Source: an uncultured Gemmatimonadales bacterium (lineage in GTDB: Bacteria; Gemmatimonadota; Gemmatimonadetes; Gemmatimonadales; GWC2-71-9). From it: a stretch of DNA of 64,000 nucleotides. A program made the translations under genes and the position numbers. Location of the stretch: positions 488,907 to 552,906 of the forward strand of contig CAWGDK010000005.1 of NCBI GenBank assembly GCA_963821385.1. Direction: 5' to 3'. The notes beneath the pieces are model-generated. The model was given only the letters and a program-made list of their open reading frames with translations, was not told where the DNA came from and did not search any database. Shown piece after piece: positions 5,974 through 63,641 of this stretch (position 1 is its first letter; every line of letters begins with the position of its first letter).

Positions 5974-6034
5974 GGTGTCCTCATCCTGGTAGGTGTCAGC
6001 CGCCGCAGGCCGACAGGTTCATGCCTGGTTAACG

Positions 6035-6740
6035 TCAGCGGCGGCGCAACGCGGCCGCGATCGCCGCTTCAGCCAGTGGTGCCATCACGCGGTACCCGGC
6101 CTCGTTCGGGTGCACGCCGTCCTGGGACAGCTCCGGCCTGAGCCCCATTTGCGCATCGGCCATCGCCGAGTGGAAGTCGACGTAGACAACGTCGTGCGCA
6201 GCCGCATACCGCCTTATCCAGGCGTTGAGCGCCACGATCTTCGGCGCGGGCTCCAATCCCCGCTTCCATGGATAGTCGGAGACCGGTAACACGGACGCCA
6301 GCACGACGCGAATGCCGTTCGCCTGCGCGAGCTCGACCATCGACACGAGGTTGTCCTCGATCATCTCGAGCGTCGCGGGGCCCGTGTTCCCCGCGATATC
6401 GTTGGTGCCGGCCAGGATGACGACCGCCGCCGGGTGGAGCGCGATCACATCCTGCCGGAAGCGCACCAGCATCTGCGGCGTGGTCTGGCCGCTGATGCCG
6501 CGCCCCACATAGGGTTTTCCAGGAAACGATGTGGCGAAGAGCGGGGCCCAGTAGGCGGTGATGGAGTTGCCGTAGAACACCACCCGTTGCTCGCCGGGAC
6601 GCGGGGCGCCGAGCGCGGCGTTCGAGTCGCGATAGCGGGCGAGGGAGGCCCAGTCGTCCGCGCTCGTCTGGGCCTGGAGTCGCGTCAGCAGAGACGCGGT
6701 GACCAAGCCCAGGACGGCAAGGCGGGAGGCTACGGAGACT
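6035..6740 (-). CDS. SGNH/GDSL-family hydrolase (lipase/acylhydrolase), secreted; start codon unclear
   Basis: C-terminal 230 aa of ORF 6035..7153. Motifs: VVFYGNSIT (block I), GISGQTT (block II), ILAGTNDI (block III), DGVHPN (block V). The part of the ORF upstream of ~6740 overlaps the RCC1 gene in another frame and is not credible. Confidence 0.8.
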
Positions 6741-8874
6741 CCGTGACCCGAACCGGCGCGCCGCGGTCGATCAGCGTGCCATCGCCGAGCTGCCCACTGG
6801 AGTTGCTCCCCCAACAGTAGATCGACCCGTCGGGCGTCACGCCGCAGGTGTGCGAGCCCCCGGCGCTCAAGGCGACAAAGGTGAGCCCACCGCTCACCGG
6901 CGCCGCGACGGCATTCGCTCCCCCGATGGCGCCATTCCCGAGCTGGCCGTTCGAATTCGACCCCCAGCAATAGGCGGCTCCCGCCGCCGTGAGACCGCAG
7001 GTGTGCTCGCCCCCGGCCACGAGCGACACCAGCGTCACCGCGACCGACGCCCGGATCGGATACCCATGTCCATTGAACCCGTACGCCGGCTGGCCCAGCT
7101 GGCCGCTCGAGTTCGATCCCCAGCACAGCACGCCCACGGCGTCGAACGCGCACGTGTGACCACGTCCCGCGGCGAGCCCTGACAGCGGAATCCCTTCACC
7201 AATCGCGTTCCCAGAGGTGTCCGCATAGCCGACCGGCAGCTTGAAGCCATCGGGGTGACTGTAAATCGGATTCCAGGACGAAGCCTCCAGAGGCCCGTAG
7301 CCCAGCTCTCCTCCGAAATTCATCCCCATGCAGATGACCCGGAAGTTGAGATAGAGAACCGATGGCCTGGCGCAGACATGCTCGCCACCGGCCGCGGCTT
7401 CGACGAAATCCGTGGTCTGGTCGGCGAACGGGCTCGGGGGGAGCGGTACGGCTGCCGCGGCCGTCGAGTCGAACGTGACGCCGTCGGTGCTGTTATTGGC
7501 GCTGTGGGTTCCCCAGCAGCGCATGCGCCGGACGCGGCTGATAAAACCGAACCGCGCACGGGCGAGGATGCATGTGTAGGTGCCGCCGACGAGCAGCTGC
7601 TCGATACGCAGCTGCGCGGTGTCCAGATTGCCGTCCGAGACGACCGTCACCGGAACCTCGGACGCATCGAACCCCCCGCAGCCTGTCGACCCACCCGTAC
7701 ATGGGGCGTCGCCCAGCGCGCCGTGTATCCGCGAACCCCAACAGAACAGGTTGACCTGCGCTTCTTCCCCGCAGGTGTGCGCATCACCGGCCGCGAGCTC
7801 GTTGAACCGGTGAGATGTCGCGACCGCGAGCGGGCGGGATGAGAGCGGGAGCGCGGCTGTCGTGAGCCCGGCGCCGAGCTCCCCCGCATTGTTGCTGCCC
7901 CAGCAATACCCGGTGCCATCGAGCGCCGCGATCGCGCAGGTGTGGTCCAACCCGGCGCTCACGGTGCGCCACCTCTGCACCACCACGAGCGGCGCGCGAT
8001 GCTCGGCGACCTCGAACGGCGCGGCCCCTACCGTGGCCACGATTTCGCCGCCGCCCCGGCTCTTGGCCAGAACGAGACCATTGGAGTCGACGGTGAACGC
8101 CGCCACGTTCGTGGAGCTCCAGTGCACCGTAAGCCCCGTCTTGGTCCGGCCCAGCGCGTCCTGCACCGTCACGCCGAACGAGGCCGTGTCGTTGAGCGAG
8201 ATCAACGGCGCCCACACCGGTTGTTCGATGACCCGGAGCGGCAACACCCGGACCGGCAGCTGGAACGTCGAGTGGCCGAGCTGGTTCTGGACCGTCACGA
8301 TCACCTGCGCCGTGCCGCTGATGCGGGCGGTAATCTCGGCCCGCGTGGAATCCGTTGCCAGGGACGTCACACCGAGCACCGACGGATCGCTCGAGCTCCA
8401 GGTGACTGCACCGGTCAAGAAGCTCGGATCGACGTGCAGCACCAGGCCGATCGTGTCGACATCGCCGACGGACAGCAACGAGTCGGCGCCGCGCGGCCGG
8501 ACGACCACCGGTGCCGTCAGCTCGACCGGCGCGAAGCCGGTTTGGGCAACACGCACGGAGATAGTGGCCGTTCCGGAGCGGCGGCTGTCGACCGTGGCGT
8601 GCAGCGGGCTCGTGCTCGTCACCGTCACGACCGAGGAATCGGAGGACCCCCACTCGAGGTTCAGGCCCGTGAGGTTTTGCTGCTGTGGATCCGTCACGGT
8701 CACCGCGAGCGTCGCGATCTCGGCGACATCCAGCGAATCCGGCCAGGCGGCGCCCTTCGCGAGCGTCACCGTGATCGACCCGGTGGGCTCGAGCTCGTTG
8801 GTGCAGGTGGCGGCGAGCGAACCGAGGAGCAGGATCGCGGCCGCGAGACGAAGCCTCGACAGGTTAGAACGCAT
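6730..8874 (-). CDS. lipoprotein with ~3 bacterial Ig-like (BIG2) domains and an RCC1-repeat beta-propeller
   Basis: ORF 6730..8901. The likely start is MRSNLSRL at 8874, with lipobox LGSLAATC. BIG2-like segments include SSDSSVVTVTS..GTATISVRV. There are repeated CWGSNxxGxLG RCC1 signatures (CWGSNNAGELG, CWGSNSSGQLG x2, CWGSNSNGQLG). Confidence 0.85.
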   Translation of the reverse strand: MRSNLSRLRLAAAILLLGSLAATCTNELEPTGSITVTLAKGAAWPDSLDVAEIATLAVTVTDPQQQNLTGLNLEWGSSDSSVVTVTSTSPLHATVDSRRSGTATISVRVAQTGFAPVELTAPVVVRPRGADSLLSVGDVDTIGLVLHVDPSFLTGAVTWSSSDPSVLGVTSLATDSTRAEITARISGTAQVIVTVQNQLGHSTFQLPVRVLPLRVIEQPVWAPLISLNDTASFGVTVQDALGRTKTGLTVHWSSTNVAAFTVDSNGLVLAKSRGGGEIVATVGAAPFEVAEHRAPLVVVQRWRTVSAGLDHTCAIAALDGTGYCWGSNNAGELGAGLTTAALPLSSRPLAVATSHRFNELAAGDAHTCGEEAQVNLFCWGSRIHGALGDAPCTGGSTGCGGFDASEVPVTVVSDGNLDTAQLRIEQLLVGGTYTCILARARFGFISRVRRMRCWGTHSANNSTDGVTFDSTAAAAVPLPPSPFADQTTDFVEAAAGGEHVCARPSVLYLNFRVICMGMNFGGELGYGPLEASSWNPIYSHPDGFKLPVGYADTSGNAIGEGIPLSGLAAGRGHTCAFDAVGVLCWGSNSSGQLGQPAYGFNGHGYPIRASVAVTLVSLVAGGEHTCGLTAAGAAYCWGSNSNGQLGNGAIGGANAVAAPVSGGLTFVALSAGGSHTCGVTPDGSIYCWGSNSSGQLGDGTLIDRGAPVRVTESP

Positions 8875-10033
8875 ACGTGAGCCCCGCGCCGGCGAACGCA
8901 TTGGGAATCGAGCGCAGCTGTGCCTCGGTGCGGAACCCCCAGTGCCCCAGGACGCCTGTGAGGGCGATGTGCGGTGCGATCAGGAATTGCAGATCCGCCC
9001 CGACGCCAACCCCGATCACGTCGTTGGTCAGCGTCTGCCAGACCGGGACTTGCACCGAGTCGGTTCCGGACTGCACGTAGTAGCTCCCGGCCTGGAAGCG
9101 GCCCTTCACCCGGGCGACGCCGGCCTCCACGAACGGCGCGATCGCGAATCGCCCGGACCGGACCGCGACACTCGTTCCCACCATGCCGCCGGTTACCTGG
9201 AGATCTTCAGGCGCGAGCCGCAGCGCCGACAGGTGCCAGCCGATCCGCTCCTGGCCCCGGAGCAGCAGCGCGAATCGCCCACTCGGCAAGCGACCGGATT
9301 GCGTCAGCGCGCCCGTGCTCGGCGCCAAGCCGACCAGACTGAAGCGCGTGTGATACCCGGCACGAGGGATGCTCGTCGGACTCAGTTGGACCGGAATGCT
9401 CCACTTCCGCAGCCGGTCGGCCACTTCGCTCATGCCAACCGCGATGCCGTCCTGGCTGTTCTTTTCGGTCACCACTCCCACCACTTCCCACTCCCGGTTG
9501 AACAGCGCGCCCCCCGAGCTCCCCGGACTCACGAAGAACGACTCGAAGCGCACGCGGCGCGCGCTCGCGCTGATCACGCGGTCACCGCTCACCGGAGGAT
9601 CCCAGCACACCCGGTCGGGGCACCCCACCGGGATGACCAGCGCCCCGGCCTCGAGGGCCGCGGGATCTCCCTCACGATTGAAGGCGAATTGGATGGTAGC
9701 GCGCGCATCGCGCGGCAGGCTCAGCACCGCCAGGTCGAGGTCGCGGTCGAGCTGATCCAGATGCGCCTCGACGGTGTCGTTACGCGCGAACTGGAACACC
9801 ACGCGGATCTTGCCACCCTGTTGGGCACTGCGGACCACGTGACCCGCGGTCACGATGATGATGCGAGTGGACGCCGCGACCACGATCCCGGCGCCGACCT
9901 CCTCATCTTCGCCTCCGCTGGCCAGCACCTGGACCACCAGGTTGGCCGCCTCCACTGGCATGCGCGATACGCGTTGGGCTGCCAGCGGAGCGGCGGTGAG
10001 ACCCAAGATCGTTGCACCGACAACGACTCTCAT
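8864..10033 (-). CDS. trypsin-like (S1/S1C-type) serine protease fused to a C-terminal predicted outer-membrane beta-barrel
   Basis: ORF 8864..10051. The ATG at 10033 forms an ATGA overlap with the kinase stop. Motifs: signal peptide, VTAGHVV (His), DLAVLSL (Asp), SPGSSGGALF (Ser). The C-terminal ~170 aa show alternating hydrophobic beta-strand patterns and end ...GAGLTYAF. Confidence 0.7.
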   Translation of the reverse strand: MRVVVGATILGLTAAPLAAQRVSRMPVEAANLVVQVLASGGEDEEVGAGIVVAASTRIIIVTAGHVVRSAQQGGKIRVVFQFARNDTVEAHLDQLDRDLDLAVLSLPRDARATIQFAFNREGDPAALEAGALVIPVGCPDRVCWDPPVSGDRVISASARRVRFESFFVSPGSSGGALFNREWEVVGVVTEKNSQDGIAVGMSEVADRLRKWSIPVQLSPTSIPRAGYHTRFSLVGLAPSTGALTQSGRLPSGRFALLLRGQERIGWHLSALRLAPEDLQVTGGMVGTSVAVRSGRFAIAPFVEAGVARVKGRFQAGSYYVQSGTDSVQVPVWQTLTNDVIGVGVGADLQFLIAPHIALTGVLGHWGFRTEAQLRSIPNAFAGAGLTYAF

Positions 10034-52989: not shown

Positions 52990-53255
52990 TGGAACCTCCA
53001 TAACGGCGGATTCGCATGCCGATCCCCCCGCCGGCACCGACCGGACTGTAGCGGAGAGCATTCTGGGGCGTTGTGAAGTTCAGATGAAGCCGACCTCAAC
53101 CAGGCTGTGGGAGGTTGGATCGTGAGGGGGTGTCGAGGCGCGGCAGGCGACGTCCACCACCGCGCCTCGTTTGGCGTAGGCCACCCCTCATGGCCCTCGC
53201 GCACGATCAGGGCCGGGGTCGAGTCCGTCATTGGCGACGGCTTATCGTGATGTGG

Positions 53256-53785
53256 GTTCCGAGACGGAAGCGCCGGGCTCCGAGATTGTAACGACGGGTT
53301 CCGAAATGGGAGCACTGGATCCCTTTATGAAGGCGCTGAGCTCCGAGATTGTAGCGACGGGTCCCGAGATGGAAGCACTGGGTCCCTTTATGAAGGCGCT
53401 GAGCTCCGAGATTGTAGCGACGGGTTCCGAGATGGAAGCACTGGGTCCCTTTATGAAGGCGCTGAGCTCCGAGATTGTAGCGACTGGTTCCGAGATGGAA
53501 GCACTGGGTCCCTTTATGAAGGCCCTGAGCTGCGAGATTGTTGCGTGAGGTTCCGAGAAGGTGGCGCAGCGGCTCCGAGATTGTAGCGTTGGGCTCCGAG
53601 ATTGTGACGTCGGGTTTCGAGACGGAACCGCCCGGTTCCGAGATGGAAGCGCCGGGTCCCGAGATTGTCCCGTCGGGCTCCGAGACGGAAGCGCCCAGTT
53701 CCGAGATGGAAGCGCCGGGCCCCGAGACTGTACCGTCGGGTTCCGAGACGGAAGCGCATGGTTCCGAGATGAAAGGATCCACAGG
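53256..53785. repeat. minisatellite-like tandem array with a basic 21-bp unit
   Basis: The left half is organised as ~4.5 copies of a 63-bp super-unit; ctccgagattgta recurs at 53278, 53341, 53404, 53467 and 53530. The right half (53576-53785) is nine 21-bp units of the form gggYtccgagaYggaagcgcc. All six frames are largely open (ORFs 53231..53548, 53538..54314, 53561..53899, 53228..53842, 53242..53949, 53514..53819). Confidence 0.9.
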
Positions 53786-53810
53786 CACCGGCGAAGGAAG
53801 GGCGGACGAA

Positions 53811-54314
53811 ATGACACAACCGGCGTGGTTACGCGGTCCCATGGCGGGCGTTCCGGCGCTCCTGCAACCCGTCGCTCACGCGTTGATCGACGCGGATGAG
53901 GACGTGCAGCGATGCATCCCTTCCCTCTCGGCAGCGCAGGTTGCCGCACGTCCGAGTGGCGTGGCTTCCGTCGCTTATCACGTGACGCACGCGATCGGAA
54001 GCCTGGACAGGCTCTTGACCTATGCCCGTGGCGAAGGCCTCAATGACGGACAACTCGCCGTGCTCGCGGGCGAGAAGACGTTCGATCCCGGGGGAACGAC
54101 TGGGCGGCAACTCGCCGCGCAATTCGCCGCCGCGATCGGCCGCGCGCAGGCACAGCTCCGCGCGACGGCGGAGTCGGAGCTGCACGTGACGCGGCTGGTC
54201 GGCCGTGCGCGGCTTCCGGCCAGTACGCTGGGACTGCTGTTCCACGCCGCCGAGCATACCGCCCGCCACGTGGGCCAGGTCGTGACCACGGCGAAGCTGG
54301 TGTCAGCCCTCTAG
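53811..54314 (+). CDS. DinB-family (DinB_2-like) metal-dependent protein; possible N-terminal extension into the repeat array (in-frame back to 53538)
   Basis: ORF 53538..54314. The core starts at the ATG at 53811 (MTQPAWLRGPMAGVPALLQPVAHAL) and ends ...LLFHAAEHTARHVGQVVT. Confidence 0.8.
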   Translation: MTQPAWLRGPMAGVPALLQPVAHALIDADEDVQRCIPSLSAAQVAARPSGVASVAYHVTHAIGSLDRLLTYARGEGLNDGQLAVLAGEKTFDPGGTTGRQLAAQFAAAIGRAQAQLRATAESELHVTRLVGRARLPASTLGLLFHAAEHTARHVGQVVTTAKLVSAL

Positions 54315-55042: not shown

Positions 55043-55060
55043 ATATGATGTTCATCATAC
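55043..55060. promoter_or_regulatory. second copy of the palindromic candidate TetR operator, upstream of the hydrolase gene
   Basis: The site is atatgatgTTCatcatac, 15 nt upstream of the ATG at 55075. Confidence 0.5.
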
Positions 55061-55074
55061 AACCGGAGAGCACT

Positions 55075-55942
55075 ATGAGCTTACGACAACAGTCGCATGC
55101 AGGATCGAGCATCGCGTGGAGCAATGCGCCGACGAAGGCCGTCGATGTCGGCGGGACGAAATTCGTGTACAGGCAGCTTGGGCCTGACACCGGTGTGCCG
55201 GTGATCTTCCTCAACCACCTGGCAGCGGAACTCGACAGGTGGGATCCCCGCGTGGTCGATGGCATCGCGACGAGACGCCGCGTCATCGTCTTCGACAACC
55301 AGGGCATTGGCGCTTCGAAGGGGAAGACTCCAACGTCAGTAGAGGCGATGGCGCGGGACGCTGTGGCGTTCATCCAGGTGCTCGGTTTTGCTCAGGTCGA
55401 CCTGCTTGGCTTCTCCCTTGGCGGTTTCATCTCGCAGGTGATCGCGCAGGACCGACCCGCAACTGGTCCGGAAGATTATCCTCGCGGGCACCGGGCCAGC
55501 CGGAGGCACGGGCATCGACAAGGTGACGTCGGTGACCATGCGCGACATGGCGAAGGGCGCGCTGACGCTCAGGCACCCGGAGTTCTATCTCTTCTTCACC
55601 GGGACGCCCAACGGCCGCAGTGCGGCGCGCGAATTCCTGGGACGACTGAAGGAGCGCACCAAGAATCGCGACAAGGGGGTTTCGATCCCCGCGTTCCGCG
55701 CCCAATTGAAGGCCATACACGCGTGGGGGCGTCAGCGTCCTGCGGATCTGTCGCGCATTCATCACCCGGTTCTGGTGGCGAATGGTGAGCACGACAAGAT
55801 GGTGCCCAGCAGCAACTCGGTCGACCTGGCGCGCCGCCTTCCGAACGCCGAGCTCGTCCTGTATGAGGATGCCGGACATGGGGGCGTCTTCCAGTACCAC
55901 CAGGCGTTCGTGAAAAAGGCTTTGGAGTTCCTTGAAGCGTGA
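55075..55942 (+). pseudogene. alpha/beta-fold hydrolase, one frame disruption near 55455
   Basis: ORF 55045..55788 (VIFLNHLAA, nucleophile elbow LLGFSLGGFISQ) joins ORF 55523..55942 (PVLVANGEHDKMVP, DAGHGGVFQ). Confidence 0.85.
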
Positions 55943-58274: not shown

Positions 58275-58652
58275 CTAGGCTGCGACGGCGGCGATCACCG
58301 GACCGGCGGGAATCAATTCCTTCCGGACGGGGTCGATTTTGAGGTTCAACCCCTCCAGCGAGTGCGCACCCAGCAGCGTCATATCCCCGGTTTCGGCGAA
58401 GACCACCAGGTCGGGGGCCTCCGAGCCGGCGGCTCTCACGAGGGCGTACCCAATGTCGCGGTCGATGCGCCGCCCGTCAGCGACGATGAACCCTTGGCGC
58501 CGTTGCGGTCGGACGCCGAGCGCCTCGAGGATGGGACGGGAAATCCAGGTGTACTCGCTGCCCGTATCTACGAGGACGTCTGGCAGCGCCCGCCACGGAG
58601 ACTCTTGGGCCTCCCAATTCCTCACTTCAATGGTCGTGCGAAAGAGCCCCAT
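58275..58652 (-). CDS. retropepsin-like (clan AA) aspartic protease, ~125 aa
   Basis: Within ORF 58275..58922, from the ATG at 58652: MGLFRTTIEV...LPDVLVDTGSEYTWISRPILEALG (DTG active site) ...GDMTLLGAHSLEGLNLKIDP. Confidence 0.75.
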   Translation of the reverse strand: MGLFRTTIEVRNWEAQESPWRALPDVLVDTGSEYTWISRPILEALGVRPQRRQGFIVADGRRIDRDIGYALVRAAGSEAPDLVVFAETGDMTLLGAHSLEGLNLKIDPVRKELIPAGPVIAAVAA

Positions 58653-59430
58653 GTCGTTCACAATGGCCTCCTCGGGTGCTGACTTCGACACCATTTCCTT
58701 GCGATGAGAGACAAATCTACGCCACCGGTGGCTGGGCGTGCTGGCGGCATCGTTGGAGGCGACCAAGGCCCCCGGAGGCGAATGAGAAGAGGCCCCCGCG
58801 ATCGCGGAGGCCTCGAGCCGGCCGGACAGGGCCGGCGTGCCCGTCAGGGCACGAGCGGAGCGAAGTCGCGCAGCGACCGAGCTCAACTGCGACTCGTTAG
58901 GGGTGTGCCCTACGGCGGACAAGCCGGCCGCGAGGCACTCTATCTGCTGCCCTGCGGCGATGTCGCGGCCGTCGTCTGGAATCAGGGCTGGGGGTCGTCA
59001 AGACGATCCTCACGCGAGACCACGCGATTGCGAACATGCAGTCCATGGGTGCGGTTCGCCGCAATCGAAGCGACCTGCGCGAACTGGCCGAGCAGCACTT
59101 CAACGCTGGCGTCAGCAGGAGGAGGAACGCGCTGCTGCGGGGGCGGGGATCGATCCCGGAGGGAAGGCAGGCGAGATCTACGGGGCCGCCTACGGCGCGT
59201 TGGTGAAGGCTCAGTGCTCGAAAATCGAGGCCTCGGAAACAGCAGGACGCCGAAGAACTCCGCTTTCATTCGCCACTCGTGGTCAGCGCGCGCGCGCCTA
59301 GTTATCCGCCATCCTCCCCTATTGTTCCGCAAAACGCCTCTCAATGGCGCAAAAACGCCCTAAGCGCGTCCGGGATACTGCACCTTAGGACACAACCGCA
59401 CGAGGTTGTCGCGGAACAACGCCCCTCGGA

Positions 59431-61000
59431 ATGGCAACCATGGCAACGTCTCTGACCATTTTCAAGATCAGGAGTGGAATTACGAACCATGATGAGATTG
59501 TTGTCAATCGTGACCGCCTCAGAGTGTTTCCAGTCTCGATAAACCGCAACCTGTTAGGCATTCTCTACGTCCAGAGGAACCCTCTCAAGCTACCTAGCTG
59601 GCTAGGGTTCTTCGAAGACATCGTGGATTTCGAAGGTATGGAACTCAGAACAACAGGTGCCAAAGCGGTGCTTGTCATCCAACGAGACGCGAACACTGTG
59701 TTCGCTCTGACGTTTGGATACGGTCGATGGATGATTCAGGACTCTGCGATTGAATCACGCTTTGGCTTGCATGTCACCCTGAACGCGATCGATCCTACCG
59801 GCATTAGATCGATTGACCACAAGAGACTCGAAGCGATTTCCCGGCAGACCCGAGAACAACTGAGTCAGGCCTCCGGACTTCAGTACTTTGGGATGGATGT
59901 GGAGCGGGATCTCTTGAGAGCAGTTACCGGAAAACCACGAGACGCGACGTTGGCCGATCGGCTCGCCGGGGGCGACCAACTCACGGTGATCGGCGACATC
60001 TCAATCCGTGGGCTCAATGCAGCCCTCAGTCGATTTCGCAGCATTGTCGAGGGAAACAGCGTATAGGAGAGATTTTGGTTTCGTCGACTTCATAGCAGAA
60101 GTAACCGATGTGGCGCTTCAAACCCAGCTTGATGCGACGTTGGTCGCGCGGATGCGTAGGCAGGCCCCGCTAGGGGTCTGGCTAGCACCCCCGAGAGATC
60201 TTGAGTCGGGACGAGGTTCGTGGTTTCAGGTACAAGGGCAACGCGAACGCTCCGATCCATGATGATCTGGACTTGGAAGAGTACATCAACGACGCGGGCC
60301 CTCGGCGACAAACAACAATTGAACGCCTTCGCCACGATCGTGTGCGTTTGGTCAGCGCAGTGGATGGAGCGGACCGACAGGAATGGAGTGTCTACCGATG
60401 TTTGGTGGGGGAGCTAACGGTCCGCGACGAAACGTACGTTCTGAACGAGGGGAAATGGTATCGAGTTGATCGCGATTTCCTCGCGGACGTAAACGCGGCG
60501 GTTGGGGCCTTGCCAGCAACCAATGCTCCCCTTCCCCCCTTCCGCCAGCGTTCAGAACGTAGCTACAACCGTCGAACCCAAGAACAATCGGGTGGCCGCT
60601 TCGCCCTACTGGATCGACAAATGATCGTTACTGTAGGGCGCGGTTTGTCGAAAGCTGTGACCTCTTTAGCCTCGAACGTCAGCTCATTCATGTGAAGCGC
60701 TATACCGGTTCGGGGACACTCAGCCATCTCTTCAACCAAGGTGTGGTTTCGGGTGAGCTCCTTGCATATGATCGAACCTTCAGACAGGGCTTCAATGACC
60801 TGTTGCCTGCAACCCATCGAATGGCCCAGCCTGCAGCGGCGATCGTTACTGGAGAGTACGAGGTGGCTTATGCGATCATAGCTCGTCGAGGCACACAGTT
60901 TGTACTGCCATTCTTTAGCAGAGTGACCCTTCGCTACGCCGCGCGCGTGCTTCGCCAGATTGGCTATGCCGTAACATTGACGGCAATTCCTACTCCGTAG
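59431..61000 (+). pseudogene. TIGR04141/DUF6119-like sporadically distributed protein (~520 aa) with a C-terminal PD-(D/E)xK-like motif; 3 frame disruptions (~60055, ~60200, ~60640)
   Basis: ORFs 59431..60066, 60008..60262, 60201..60695 and 60692..61000. My own translation across the last junction gives FVESCDLFSLERQLIHVKRYTGSGTLSHLFNQGVVSGELL. The family assignment is from memory of TIGR04141 sequence style. Local GC is about 50%. Confidence 0.6.
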
Positions 61001-61018: not shown

Positions 61019-62179
61019 CTACCCTTTGACGCGCTCGTCTAGCCGGCTCCGAAGCCAATTCTCCAACCGTCCCCTCACAGCCAAAGACATCGTACCGGTT
61101 CTCTCGGGATCAGCGAAGGCCGGAAGTCGATCCATATTTCTTCTCACCTCGTACCATCCAGCTTCGATTCCGACCATCAACTCGGCGTGATCGGAGGGAT
61201 CAGCCGTCCCGTCGAAAATGTACTTGAAGGACAAGTTGTCGAACGTCTTGAGATCCTTCGGGTCTCTTTCCGCGCGGAAGAAGGCGGAGGGAATGAGATG
61301 ATCCGTATGGAAGTAGCCCTGATAGTGATCGGACGAGTAGCCTCTGAAAGGCGACGTTTCCTTAGCGGCGATGACTGCCCCGTCTTTGATCTCTGACGAG
61401 CCACGTGGCTGGGCAGTGGACGAGGCCGCGAGGCTTTCGACCGTCCGGGCCTGGGAAGGCGTTGCCGATTGTGCGCATCGCGATCTCCAGATGGCCCACC
61501 TTTTCCTTGTCGCCGAGCATGTCCAGTCCCGCACGCGCGTAGGCAAAGTGCCCTAGCGCGTTCGAGGTGGTCATCACCCCGCCGGGTGTCCTGTGATCGT
61601 GCCACCAGCGTCCGTCGGCTTGTGTGCAGAAGACGTTCGGCAACGTTGAGAATTTCAGGATCCTCGGTCCGCGGCGAAGAAAGACGTATTCTCGCTGAGG
61701 GACAATGGTGTCGTCAGGAATCGGCTCGACTTCCATGTAGAGCTCAAGCAGTCGTCGACACACTTCTTTGAGCCCGTCGCCGGCTCCTTGTCCACCAGGC
61801 TCTTTGAGACAACCAGGATAACGAAGGATGAACTCAGGCCTTCAAGGGCGTACCTCTTCCAGACCTGCCGGTGATCCTGAATCGTGTCTCGTAGGTCATC
61901 ATCGCCCCTGCGCATCCGGAGGATTTCGTCCTCCTCCAGAAGACAGACGAAGACAAACTTGTTCTTGGCCGCGACACGACCGAACACGCACGGCTGATTG
62001 GCTTCGAGCCATCGTGTATACACGGCTCTCTTCTTGTGTTTGTTGTACTTGGAGCTGAAGAGAATCGCATGGACACTCTCGATGTCTTCGGAAAACGGAT
62101 GCTTTTTCCGAAAGGCGTCGCGTGGGCCGCGGTATCGGAGATCGAGGATCATCTCAGCAACGTGTGTGCGCACGCTCAA
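61019..62179 (-). pseudogene. hypothetical ~386-aa protein, last gene of the nuclease-SAVED operon; 2 frame disruptions (~61760, ~61450)
   Basis: ORFs 61655..62179, 61362..61763 and 61019..61546. The start is 4 nt after the SAVED gene's stop. The only weak resemblance is NQPCVFGRVAAKNK, reminiscent of the FPCxFA motif of YqcI/YcgG-family proteins. Confidence 0.55.
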
Positions 62180-62183
62180 CCTC

Positions 62184-63641
62184 TCAACCGGTGTTTATAG
62201 TGACGGATTCTTGATACCCACCTTCCGTCGTTCGCTCGTATGTCGTAATCAACCCCAGGGCATTGAGTTGCTGACCGAGAAAGAGGGCAAACGACCAGGG
62301 TCCATAGAGAACTAGGTGGACCCGTGACGCTGAGTACCGCTCCTTGCTATCTCGAATCACAAGTTTGGCTGATCGCGCGAGCGCCACCAGGTCACCTGCA
62401 CTGCCGATACTGGTTGGACCCGTCCCACCTTCAGGCTCCGCATAGACCAGCGCGGTCGCGTGGAGGGAAGACTTCAGTTGTTCCATTTCACTCAGTCCAT
62501 GACCAGTTATCGAGAGACCGATCACGATGTCCTTACCCGGCCCACCGCTTTTCTCTCGCGATCACGAACACTTTTTGAGATCCAGGAGCATCGGAACGCC
62601 ACAGATGCGTCTCACCACCAGTCGGCTGCTCGGCTCGAAGTCGAAAGCCAGCTACTTCTGGAAGCGCAAACCCGACAGCGATCGCCGCACTGAGTGGCAG
62701 CTTACCGCGCACGTCGACGTACTTCCCGTTCGACAGAGATCCCAAGCGCTCGCGCGCAGATCGTCATCTTGGCAATAGGTCACCAGCCCATACTTCCGGT
62801 GACGCAACAGCCGGTCTCTGGGTCAAAGAAGTTGGTCCAATCCAGCTCGACCGTCGGTGCAACATCGTACCCCTGGCGGGTCCATCCATGTATCACGAGG
62901 CGAACCTCAGGTGCCTCCGATGGCTGCGCCCATAGCCCGCGGCGATCGATGATTCCAACCAACACTTCTCGCGTGATGACCTTCGCATCGCCGCCTCGCT
63001 GGATCCTCCCGCTAATCTCGTCGAGAGCAGCTGCGCGCGCGTTTTCACCCATGCGGAGATCTAGGCGTCTGCCATGCGATCGTCTACGCGCTCATACAGC
63101 CGCTCTAAAGGGTAGTATCCGAGCTCAAGTCGAAGGTCGCGACAGAAAGCATCGAGTTCTATCGGTGTTGCACCCAACACCTCGCGCCAACGGCGACGAG
63201 CAGCGTCTACCGAACGCGTCGTGAAAAACTCATCCGTTAGACGCCCTTCGAGATCGCTGATATAGGCTCCCAAGTCCGGACTGGGCGCCGGGGAATAGTT
63301 GCTGACAAGCAAACTTCAACTGGAGCAGCACCGCGCAATAACTTCCAGCTGTCAAAGAGTTTCTTAAGGAGCAGACTCGTTCCAGCACTGATGGTGACGA
63401 GGGATTCGAAGCTGTACTGATCACGGTAGTCAGTATGCCACTTGACTTGCACATAGCGGGCAGGAGCCTGGGAGTCCTTCCGCGGATGAAAAGTGATGTC
63501 GTCAGTGGAGCCCGCCTTCGGGTGTTCGAGCACAGCAGATTCGTACGAACTCCCAGGATCCAGCAGGCGCAGAAGTTCAAACCAACTGTATAGATGCTGA
63601 TAGTCGTCCCCGCCGAGACGAGAGGCACTCTGCTCAGCCAT
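62184..63641 (-). pseudogene. Cap4-like effector: N-terminal DUF4297-type PD-(D/E)xK dsDNA nuclease + C-terminal SAVED sensor domain; at least 4 frame disruptions
   Basis: ORF 63237..63641 (RLGGDDYQHLYSWFELLRLL; STDDITF...YVQVKWH, i.e. D...QxK). ORFs 63061..63312, 62780..63052 and 62533..62745 (YVDVRGKLPLSAAIAVGFALPEVAGFRLRAEQ). ORF 62184..62525 (RVHLVLYGPWSFALFLGQQLNALGLITTYE). The two CARF-like lobes are typical of SAVED. Confidence 0.7.

Follow-up and report, generated by a model that had tools for sequence, protein, structure and literature searches.

The locus and its interrupted gene

This report concerns an unnamed gene, here called T, close to one end of a 64,000-nucleotide (nt) stretch of DNA from an uncultured Gemmatimonadales bacterium (contig CAWGDK010000005.1, positions 488,907 to 552,906); 'the window' below means this whole stretch. 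T lies downstream of the gene for a PDDEXK-SAVED nuclease, an effector of the cyclic oligonucleotide-based antiphage signalling system (CBASS), and converges with a gene of the DUF6119 family (Table 1). The upstream effector matches Pfam SAVED (expect value, E, 1.5e-26) and, over its full length, the PADLOC model PDLC02007 SAVED_PDDEXK (E 1e-155); on the other side, the stop codons of T and the DUF6119 gene are 18 nt apart. T itself is split into three pieces on the minus strand (61655-62179, 61362-61763 and 61019-61546), which were read from a listing of open reading frames (ORFs) together with a three-frame translation.

Table 1. Coordinates in the window of T, its features and its two immediate neighbours
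Feature	Positions	Strand	Description and basis
T	61019..62173	(-)	protein of 384 amino acids (aa), unnamed family; predicted YqcI/YcgG-like haem-thiolate enzyme; alternative TTG start at 62179
Frameshift 1 in T	61780..61784	(-)	one base missing relative to homologues, near 61782, GGAGCC^GGCG; alignment to locus L001
Frameshift 2 in T	61391..61395	(-)	one extra base relative to homologues, near 61393, GTCA[G]AG; alignment to locus L001
Ribosome-binding site GAGAGG	62180..62185	(-)	overlaps the SAVED stop, 6 nt before GTG 62173; read from the sequence
Predicted haem-ligand cysteine loop, Q-P-C62-V-F-G	61984..62001 (approximate to the codon)	(-)	C62 invariant in the family; AglA has the similar Y-P-C44-Y-F-G
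PDDEXK-SAVED (Cap4-like) CBASS nuclease effector gene	62184..63641	(-)	upstream of T; at least 4 frameshifts; Pfam and PADLOC
DUF6119 (TIGR04141) gene	59431..61000	(+)	convergent to T; 3 frameshifts; Pfam DUF6119 E 8e-123

T is a genuine conserved gene, interrupted in the window by two single-base insertions or deletions (indels). These were placed by aligning its DNA to the nearest intact homologue, at 8001-9155 of locus L001; the repair site of the first is the top-scoring position in a scan of 15 nt to either side. An earlier note, made from the letters of the window, had put two frameshifts at about 61760 and 61450, which was roughly right, and had proposed their repair. Taking out the extra base near 61393 regains the segment HCPATWLVKIKDGAVIAAKETSPF, which aligns with the intact homologue P0001. 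The two-base repair, with no other change, gives a protein free of internal stops and 86% identical to P0001; it retains all 64 of the residues invariant among 82 homologues and 85 of the 87 near-invariant ones.

The junction with the SAVED gene is tight. The earlier note had T start 4 nt after the SAVED stop, and a TTG codon does stand there (62179, following the TGA at 62186-62184). When the DNA is aligned to the ATG of a homologue, though, the homologous starts fall on GTG 62173; since this codon also lies 6 nt past GAGAGG, the true gap is probably 10 nt. A scan of the junction found no terminator-like hairpin between the two genes. Around the island as a whole (the DUF6119 gene, T and the SAVED nuclease gene), promoter and terminator scans and searches for repeats and tRNA genes gave nothing over background.

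An unannotated protein family

T belongs to an unannotated family of soluble proteins of about 384 aa, as the earlier note had surmised in calling it conserved and unplaced. In searches made with an earlier repair of T that lacked the HCPAT segment, it had no match in Pfam or PADLOC-DB v2 at E<=1 and none in NCBIfam; in PADLOC the adjoining SAVED gene scores 1e-155. P0001, intact, has no Pfam match even at E<=10, and sequence searches of the PDB with both family profiles returned no match. The same earlier repair found 299 relatives at E<=1e-3 among 5.8 billion proteins, all of them unnamed and none with a Pfam domain; the top ones have a length of 384 aa and share 75-80% identity with T. An exhaustive profile search at E<=1e-3 collected 471 cluster representatives (clustered at 50% identity); the family is therefore real but rare.

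Homologues come mostly from soil bacteria. A genome scan separates two branches, one close to T (48-77% identity) and one distant (27-33%). Close-branch hosts are Acidobacteriota, Gemmatimonadaceae, Acetobacteraceae, Dormibacterota, Verrucomicrobia and Polyangiaceae, a spread that indicates horizontal transfer; those of the distant branch include Bradyrhizobium and Salinarimonas. T is a horizontally mobile gene of defence islands. A phage or anti-defence origin was considered and dropped, because tblastn found no homologue in phage and BFVD held no viral structural neighbour.

Conservation is concentrated in a few places. Near-invariant blocks are QPC.FG, DGRWWHDHR.PGG, NS.GH and YHTD; the residues invariant throughout the family are W55, C62, F64, F182, R195, P197, N205 and Y284 only. 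C62 is the sole cysteine that is invariant both in the close alignment (82 sequences) and in the wide one (93).

Predicted fold and chemistry

By predicted fold and by the P-C-x-F-G motif around its one invariant cysteine, T looks distantly related to the AglA, DcsA and GntA type of haem-thiolate N-hydroxylase, the YqcI/YcgG enzymes. The AlphaFold2 model, built on the 82-sequence alignment, is of high confidence (predicted local distance difference test, pLDDT, 93.1; predicted template-modelling score, pTM, 0.92). When it was compared by Foldseek with 350,542 PDB chains, a step the earlier note had called for, the top four matches were all entries of AglA (probability 0.99-1.00, E 2e-3 to 6e-3), with a template-modelling (TM) score of 0.43-0.47 on the length of AglA; the model thus appears to have the alpha/beta 'sandwich' fold of the AglA type. 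Among the YqcI/YcgG haem enzymes, hydroxylases of guanidine nitrogen, AglA is the structural prototype; its Cys44 thiolate holds the haem iron (PMC12866846).

The motif NQPCVFGRVAAKNK of T had struck the earlier note as a weak echo of the FPCxFA motif of YqcI/YcgG proteins, and this lead proved a good one. QPC62VFG in T and YPC44YFG in AglA have the pattern P-C-x-F-G in common, and T would on that comparison carry a motif of the FPC type. A YqcI/YcgG profile of our own (A5) matches AglA at E 6e-5 and aligns the FxC of that family to PPYPC44YFG. In the T model, helix 63-70 has C62 at its N-terminus, a typical position for a thiolate ligand. An hhalign comparison pairs the QPC of T with FxC, and RWWHDHRTP...SNALGHF with R..RRF.WP...FNAH.QF, in the same order, at a probability of 1.2% and a non-significant P of 0.042. 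The two families would thus share, after the cysteine loop, a second stretch of the form R...P...N-A-x-x-x-F.

Among the 93 wider relatives, PF08892, the YqcI/YcgG family of Pfam, is the only family matched repeatedly, by 10 members as against 2 for the next best. Nine of these ten matches are sub-threshold; one, in P0248, spans the motif region (E 0.15). The tenth is of another kind: in P0242 (622 aa) a T-like domain (residues 23-324) is fused to a canonical, GntA-like PF08892 domain (418-619, E 2.5e-47). Such a fusion suggests that the two types of enzyme act in sequence.

Kinship with AglA also has its differences. T is about 140 residues longer, with invariant motifs of its own (DGRWWHDHRTPGG and YHTDH); it is found in defence islands and has no reductase gene adjoining it, while all six characterised YqcI/YcgG enzymes (AglA, DcsA, GntA, ChmN, AmbT and Mhr24) belong to natural-product pathways (PMC12866846).

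Oxygenase domains of nitric oxide synthase (NOS) make up a second tier of Foldseek matches (E 0.02-0.1, probability 0.12-0.38, TM about 0.18). NOS, too, uses a cysteine-ligated haem to act on guanidine nitrogen. These scores are no evidence of membership, however, and T lacks a pterin or reductase module.

The earlier note labelled the YqcI/YcgG group 'KtzT-like', a name that has to be given up. KtzT and LnzB, the piperazate synthases, are likewise haem-dependent enzymes of nitrogen chemistry, but they have a split-barrel fold with histidine as the axial haem ligand (PMC12603108), while YqcI/YcgG enzymes are cysteine-ligated (PMC12866846); they stand outside the YqcI/YcgG family and are absent from the best 50 PDB fold matches of T. 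Nor did that note's other proposals for T find a footing in its structure: there is no SMODS or nucleotidyltransferase (NTase) domain in T and no NTase among its fold matches, as a signal synthase would call for, and nothing in the fold points to the degradation of a signal or to immunity.

Genomic neighbourhoods

Homologous loci from genomes and metagenomes were pooled and near-identical copies dropped; neighbouring genes were grouped into clusters, for which Pfam and PADLOC supplied the names. The resulting set comprises 84 non-redundant loci of the close branch, 65 of them informative (at least 3 kb of flank); a neighbour is a gene within five genes of T. The result is that T nearly always closes a defence operon and runs in the direction of that operon. 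CBASS accounts for about a third of these operons; others are Septu-linked, helicase or restriction-like, or regulator cassettes of the CapH/CapP type. The gene upstream runs in the same direction as T in 59 of 63 loci, often less than 100 nt away, from which it follows that T is typically the last gene of its operon; in 9 of the 63, an integrase comes immediately downstream.

CBASS core genes are the commonest neighbours (23 of 65 loci, 35%). CGAS/DncV-like nucleotidyltransferases (CD-NTases) and CapP-like M78 peptidases are each found in 16 loci, integrases in 14, DUF6119 in 11 (with partial copies in L002, L011 and L020), a large DEAD/ResIII helicase with type IV restriction-like hits in 8, the Septu-linked DUF3326 in 6 and Gabija in 5. 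With 16 of 65, the CD-NTase is enriched beside T but not regular.

The gene directly upstream of T may be a Cap4-like PDDEXK-SAVED nuclease (L085, L078) or another SAVED gene (L025), NucC (L088, L134, L073), an E2 (L068, L021), a CD-NTase (L001, with a 4-nt gap, L072, L074) or a regulator pair of helix-turn-helix and M78 proteins (L111/L016, L135, L142). Elsewhere it is the PADLOC candidate PDC-S70, DUF3326 behind PtuA-PtuB, DUF6119, a helicase, or a member of one of two uncharacterised families. The CBASS effectors identified beside T are nucleases, of the Cap4-like, NucC and SAVED-HNH types. The earlier note had asked for this survey, to see whether homologues keep company with SAVED or DUF4297 genes. 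The link to CBASS and to defence at large is strong; the specific partnership with SAVED dissolves, as the upstream gene changes from locus to locus.

Locus L085 has the layout of the window: two CD-NTases, a HORMA-sized gene, a TRIP13-like AAA gene, PDDEXK-SAVED, T and a convergent DUF6119 gene. The HORMA label in L085 follows from size and position only; Pfam bacHORMA_1 is confirmed in L025 alone. The cyclase of the window's own CBASS is not visible because the window stops 359 nt upstream of the SAVED start; those 359 nt have no similarity to the CBASS genes (CD-NTase, HORMA, TRIP13) of related loci.

Two further observations belong to these loci. Several T-linked CBASS operons hold two different cyclases (L001, 4781-7996; L068, 2772-6043; L020, 8460-11117; and L085), paired as a SMODS-type with a DncV-like enzyme or as two SMODS. 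And a protein of about 215 aa, with no Pfam or PADLOC match, is encoded directly upstream of T in four loci (L008, 7357-8004; L103; L091; L026) and two genes upstream in L086; the end of its gene overlaps the start of T by 4 nt in L008 and L103, and most of the loci have an integrase as the next gene behind T.

T, DUF6119 and an exchanged effector

Comparison of the window with L085 suggests which genes travel together. T is 85% identical between the two, DUF6119 66% and the SAVED nuclease 23%; the two nucleases match different PADLOC models. Across the 11 loci that have both, the identity between two copies of T is correlated with that between the DUF6119 copies of the same two loci (Mantel r 0.66, a value that 2 of 5000 permutations attained). 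Sequence comparison therefore indicates that in the window's clade T and the convergent DUF6119 move together while the CBASS effector upstream is swapped as a module. Telling against this companionship, none of three DUF6119 loci taken from elsewhere carries T, and most T loci lack DUF6119. On the strength of those three loci, DUF6119 was rejected as an obligate partner of T; where the two do adjoin, they do so in all three orientations.

DUF6119 proteins have an invariant E-x-C-D...H-x-K block, and the AlphaFold model reaches pLDDT 89. Its only suggestive PDB neighbours, both weak, are a CdiA-CT toxin (4g6u, probability 0.69) and SfsA; we take both to have restriction-endonuclease-like folds, and a nuclease domain in DUF6119 is therefore plausible but weakly supported. 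The family is absent from PADLOC. In defence islands it also occurs beside a prokaryotic Argonaute (pAgo) in L151 and beside a deaminase in L152. Literature searches on DUF6119, and on YcgG or haem in connection with phage defence or CBASS, returned nothing relevant; no paper in the library searched ties the family of T, YqcI/YcgG-like proteins or DUF6119 to phage defence.

The distant and plasmid branches

Nineteen genome loci of the distant branch carry a conserved convergent gene for a protein of about 505-570 aa that often overlaps the end of T (examples are L031, L036, L039, L047-L049, L052-L055, L057, L058, L061 and L063). Neither Pfam nor PADLOC has a match for it. The residues that are invariant in it, Q...SAC.T.ALW, H.V and HDD, resemble the Q/C/H/D set of papain-type peptidases, and in L025 a gene overlapping the end of T (5978-7498) matches Peptidase_C1 at E 3.6e-11. 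The distant T-like gene and its papain-like partner form an undescribed two-gene module. That the partner (about 520 aa) might be DUF6119 was considered and rejected: BLAST found nothing, and hhalign gave a probability of 0.3%.

A third setting is provided by 143 small (3-5.6 kb) mobilizable plasmids of the ColE1 type from E. coli, Salmonella and Klebsiella, which carry a T-family protein of 350 aa with the motif NQPCVFGK. A DMT/EamA transporter gene starts 2 nt after it (for example L150, NZ_CP071524.1, 3063-4983), and these two genes are the only cargo beyond the plasmid backbone. The peptidase pairing, the exporter pairing and the P0242 fusion all fit an enzyme acting on small molecules.

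What T might do

One way to understand these findings is to suppose that T is an AglA-like haem-thiolate enzyme that oxidises the nitrogen of a small molecule, encoded as the terminal gene of whichever defence operon it is attached to: a portable accessory or effector, not a dedicated partner of SAVED. We put the chance that this is right at slightly below even. Such a protein would bind haem b through Cys62; what it oxidises might be a guanidino or an amino group, carried for example by an amino acid, a peptide or a base. It would be co-transcribed with the defence genes that precede it, as a self-contained accessory enzyme or effector attachable to different nuclease-based systems, and would be neither a synthase nor a degrader of the cyclic-nucleotide signal nor an antidote to the SAVED nuclease.

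Several points weigh against this proposal. T gives no PF08892 match (no Pfam hit at E<=1), and profile-profile comparisons fall short (A3 against A5, probability 1.2% and P 0.042; A1 against A5, 0.2%). The Foldseek E is only about 2e-3, with TM 0.29-0.47, and T exceeds AglA in length by 140 residues. Haem binding and catalysis are predicted from fold and motif; no reductase partner is conserved beside T. A role in phage defence is drawn from the neighbourhood, which could merely reflect residence in defence islands. Finally, the copy in the window is frameshifted and may do nothing here.

The last point can be carried further: the whole island may be a dead and decaying remnant, with T without present function in this genome, a reading for which we see a chance approaching one half. 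At least nine frameshifts fall within 4.2 kb (59.4-63.6 kb: three in the DUF6119 gene, two in T, at least four in the SAVED gene), while outside the island ORFs of 1018, 935, 856 and 723 aa are intact; GC content is 0.56-0.58 over 59-64 kb against about 0.68 across the rest of the window. On the other side, all 64 invariant residues of T are kept, and repair uncovers neither an in-frame stop nor a large deletion; any decay would be very recent. Damage by indels alone is what a poorly polished long-read assembly or a mixed-strain consensus yields, and a hydrolase gene near 55.5 kb, beyond the island, is frameshifted as well. We infer that the copy of T in this genome was either freshly inactivated or mis-assembled.

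Other readings concern the family, not this copy. T could be a dedicated accessory of CBASS, a new 'Cap' with the cyclic-oligonucleotide signal or the nuclease effector as its target; it might, for example, modify or degrade the signal, prime the cyclase or shield the host as an immunity factor. The spacing of 4-10 nt behind the SAVED nuclease without an intervening terminator would suit this, as would the equally tight spacing behind the L001 cyclase, the succession of CBASS genes found directly upstream, the lead of CBASS core genes among the neighbours and the uniformly nucleolytic effectors. The reading is nonetheless decidedly improbable: 65% of the informative loci have no CBASS core gene within five genes; T also ends Septu+DUF3326, helicase, DUF6119 and uncharacterised cassettes; the type of CBASS (II-like with E2, III with TRIP13) and the gene directly upstream both vary, which leaves T no fixed protein partner; and the upstream effector is far less alike between the window and L085 than T is. 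The fold of T is not that of a nucleotide-binding protein, a phosphodiesterase or a known Cap. A non-catalytic sensor of redox state, gas or metabolite through haem or thiol, tuning the operon that T ends, would suit the haem-protein-like fold with its weak NOS oxygenase similarity, the lack of a conserved reductase partner and the company of CapH/CapP-type regulator pairs in 16 of 65 loci. But about 30 polar residues stay invariant or nearly so at 25-35% identity (in DGRWWHDHR.PGG, NS.GH and YHTD), which looks more like an active site, T lacks output and DNA-binding domains as well as any partner-switching module, and the plasmid branch is paired with an exporter; a sensor is the least probable of these readings, and by a long way an outsider.

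A further reading looks outside defence. T may be a passenger of mobile elements, a metabolic or secondary-metabolite enzyme that makes, for example, an exported N-oxygenated compound for competition, and may be found in defence islands only because it shares its integrative elements with them. The plasmid family member with its transporter, the natural-product pathways of the characterised YqcI/YcgG enzymes, the distant branch with its papain-like peptidase in place of known defence genes, and the downstream integrases are all in line with it. In the close branch, by contrast, defence genes make up the vast majority of the neighbours that could be identified (CBASS, Septu, Gabija, restriction-like helicases, PADLOC candidates, CapH/CapP-type regulators), with no biosynthetic genes or exporters to be seen, and T is embedded as the last co-directional gene, not set apart as a separate unit. 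We consider a passenger role unlikely, if somewhat less so than a dedicated CBASS function.

The portable enzyme of nitrogen oxidation, with which we began, has a stronger form, which we put forward as a long shot. In it, T would represent a new class of haem-thiolate immunity enzyme: a portable effector or amplifier at the 3' end of CBASS, Septu and other nuclease operons, often under CapH/CapP control, which on induction N-oxygenates a small molecule to block phage replication or enforce abortive infection. Such an enzyme might convert arginine or a guanidine to an N-hydroxy compound or a nitric-oxide-type species, or N-hydroxylate the amine of a nucleobase or nucleotide; the GntA-like fusion in P0242 is a hint that N-hydroxyguanidine could be a substrate of T, much as it is in the second half-reaction of NOS. 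Among ancillary genes of CBASS (Cap2/Cap3, HORMA/TRIP13, CapH/CapP and QueC/TGT/OGG), T would find parallels: it too is neither effector nor cyclase in these operons, and is often last. QueC, TGT and OGG of type IV CBASS are small-molecule or base-modifying enzymes, as T is predicted to be. T has no homology to any of them, however (no PADLOC match), is not confined to one type of CBASS and is present in many operons that are not CBASS.

Implications

What is new here is a divergent enzyme of predicted thiolate-haem fold in a new genomic role, one that no defence database model covers. If T does bind haem and affect phage infection, oxidative nitrogen chemistry of the haem-thiolate kind joins a bacterial immune repertoire that has so far consisted mainly of nucleases, NADases, membrane disruptors and nucleotide-modifying enzymes. 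A conserved family that databases leave unnamed, with its 471 representatives and one branch on very common small plasmids of E. coli, would then gain a function as well. Even without a role in defence, the AglA-type thiolate-haem fold, itself only recently defined, would be extended to an architecture of about 384 aa with invariant motifs of its own. There is a lesson for annotation as well: the tight SAVED-T junction is no mark of a dedicated partnership; one CBASS effector can replace another upstream of T, and the pair that travels together is T and DUF6119. The association of T with defence is strong and testable, though the copy in the window is broken.

Other features of the window

Three observations were made on the far side of the island boundary. 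The alpha/beta-hydrolase gene mentioned above (55045-55942, plus strand) is read in two overlapping frames, with the shift near 55500, outside the low-GC island. On the high-GC side of the boundary, an ORF at 58275-58922 (minus strand) contains the sequence DTGS, a motif characteristic of aspartyl proteases of the retropepsin-like kind. The ORFs 53231-53548 and 53538-54314 (plus strand) begin with repeated peptide units of the type GSE(I/T/M)(V/E), such as GSEIV, GSETEAP and SEMEAPGPE, over positions 53231-53800, which points to a tandem DNA repeat ahead of the remaining ORF.

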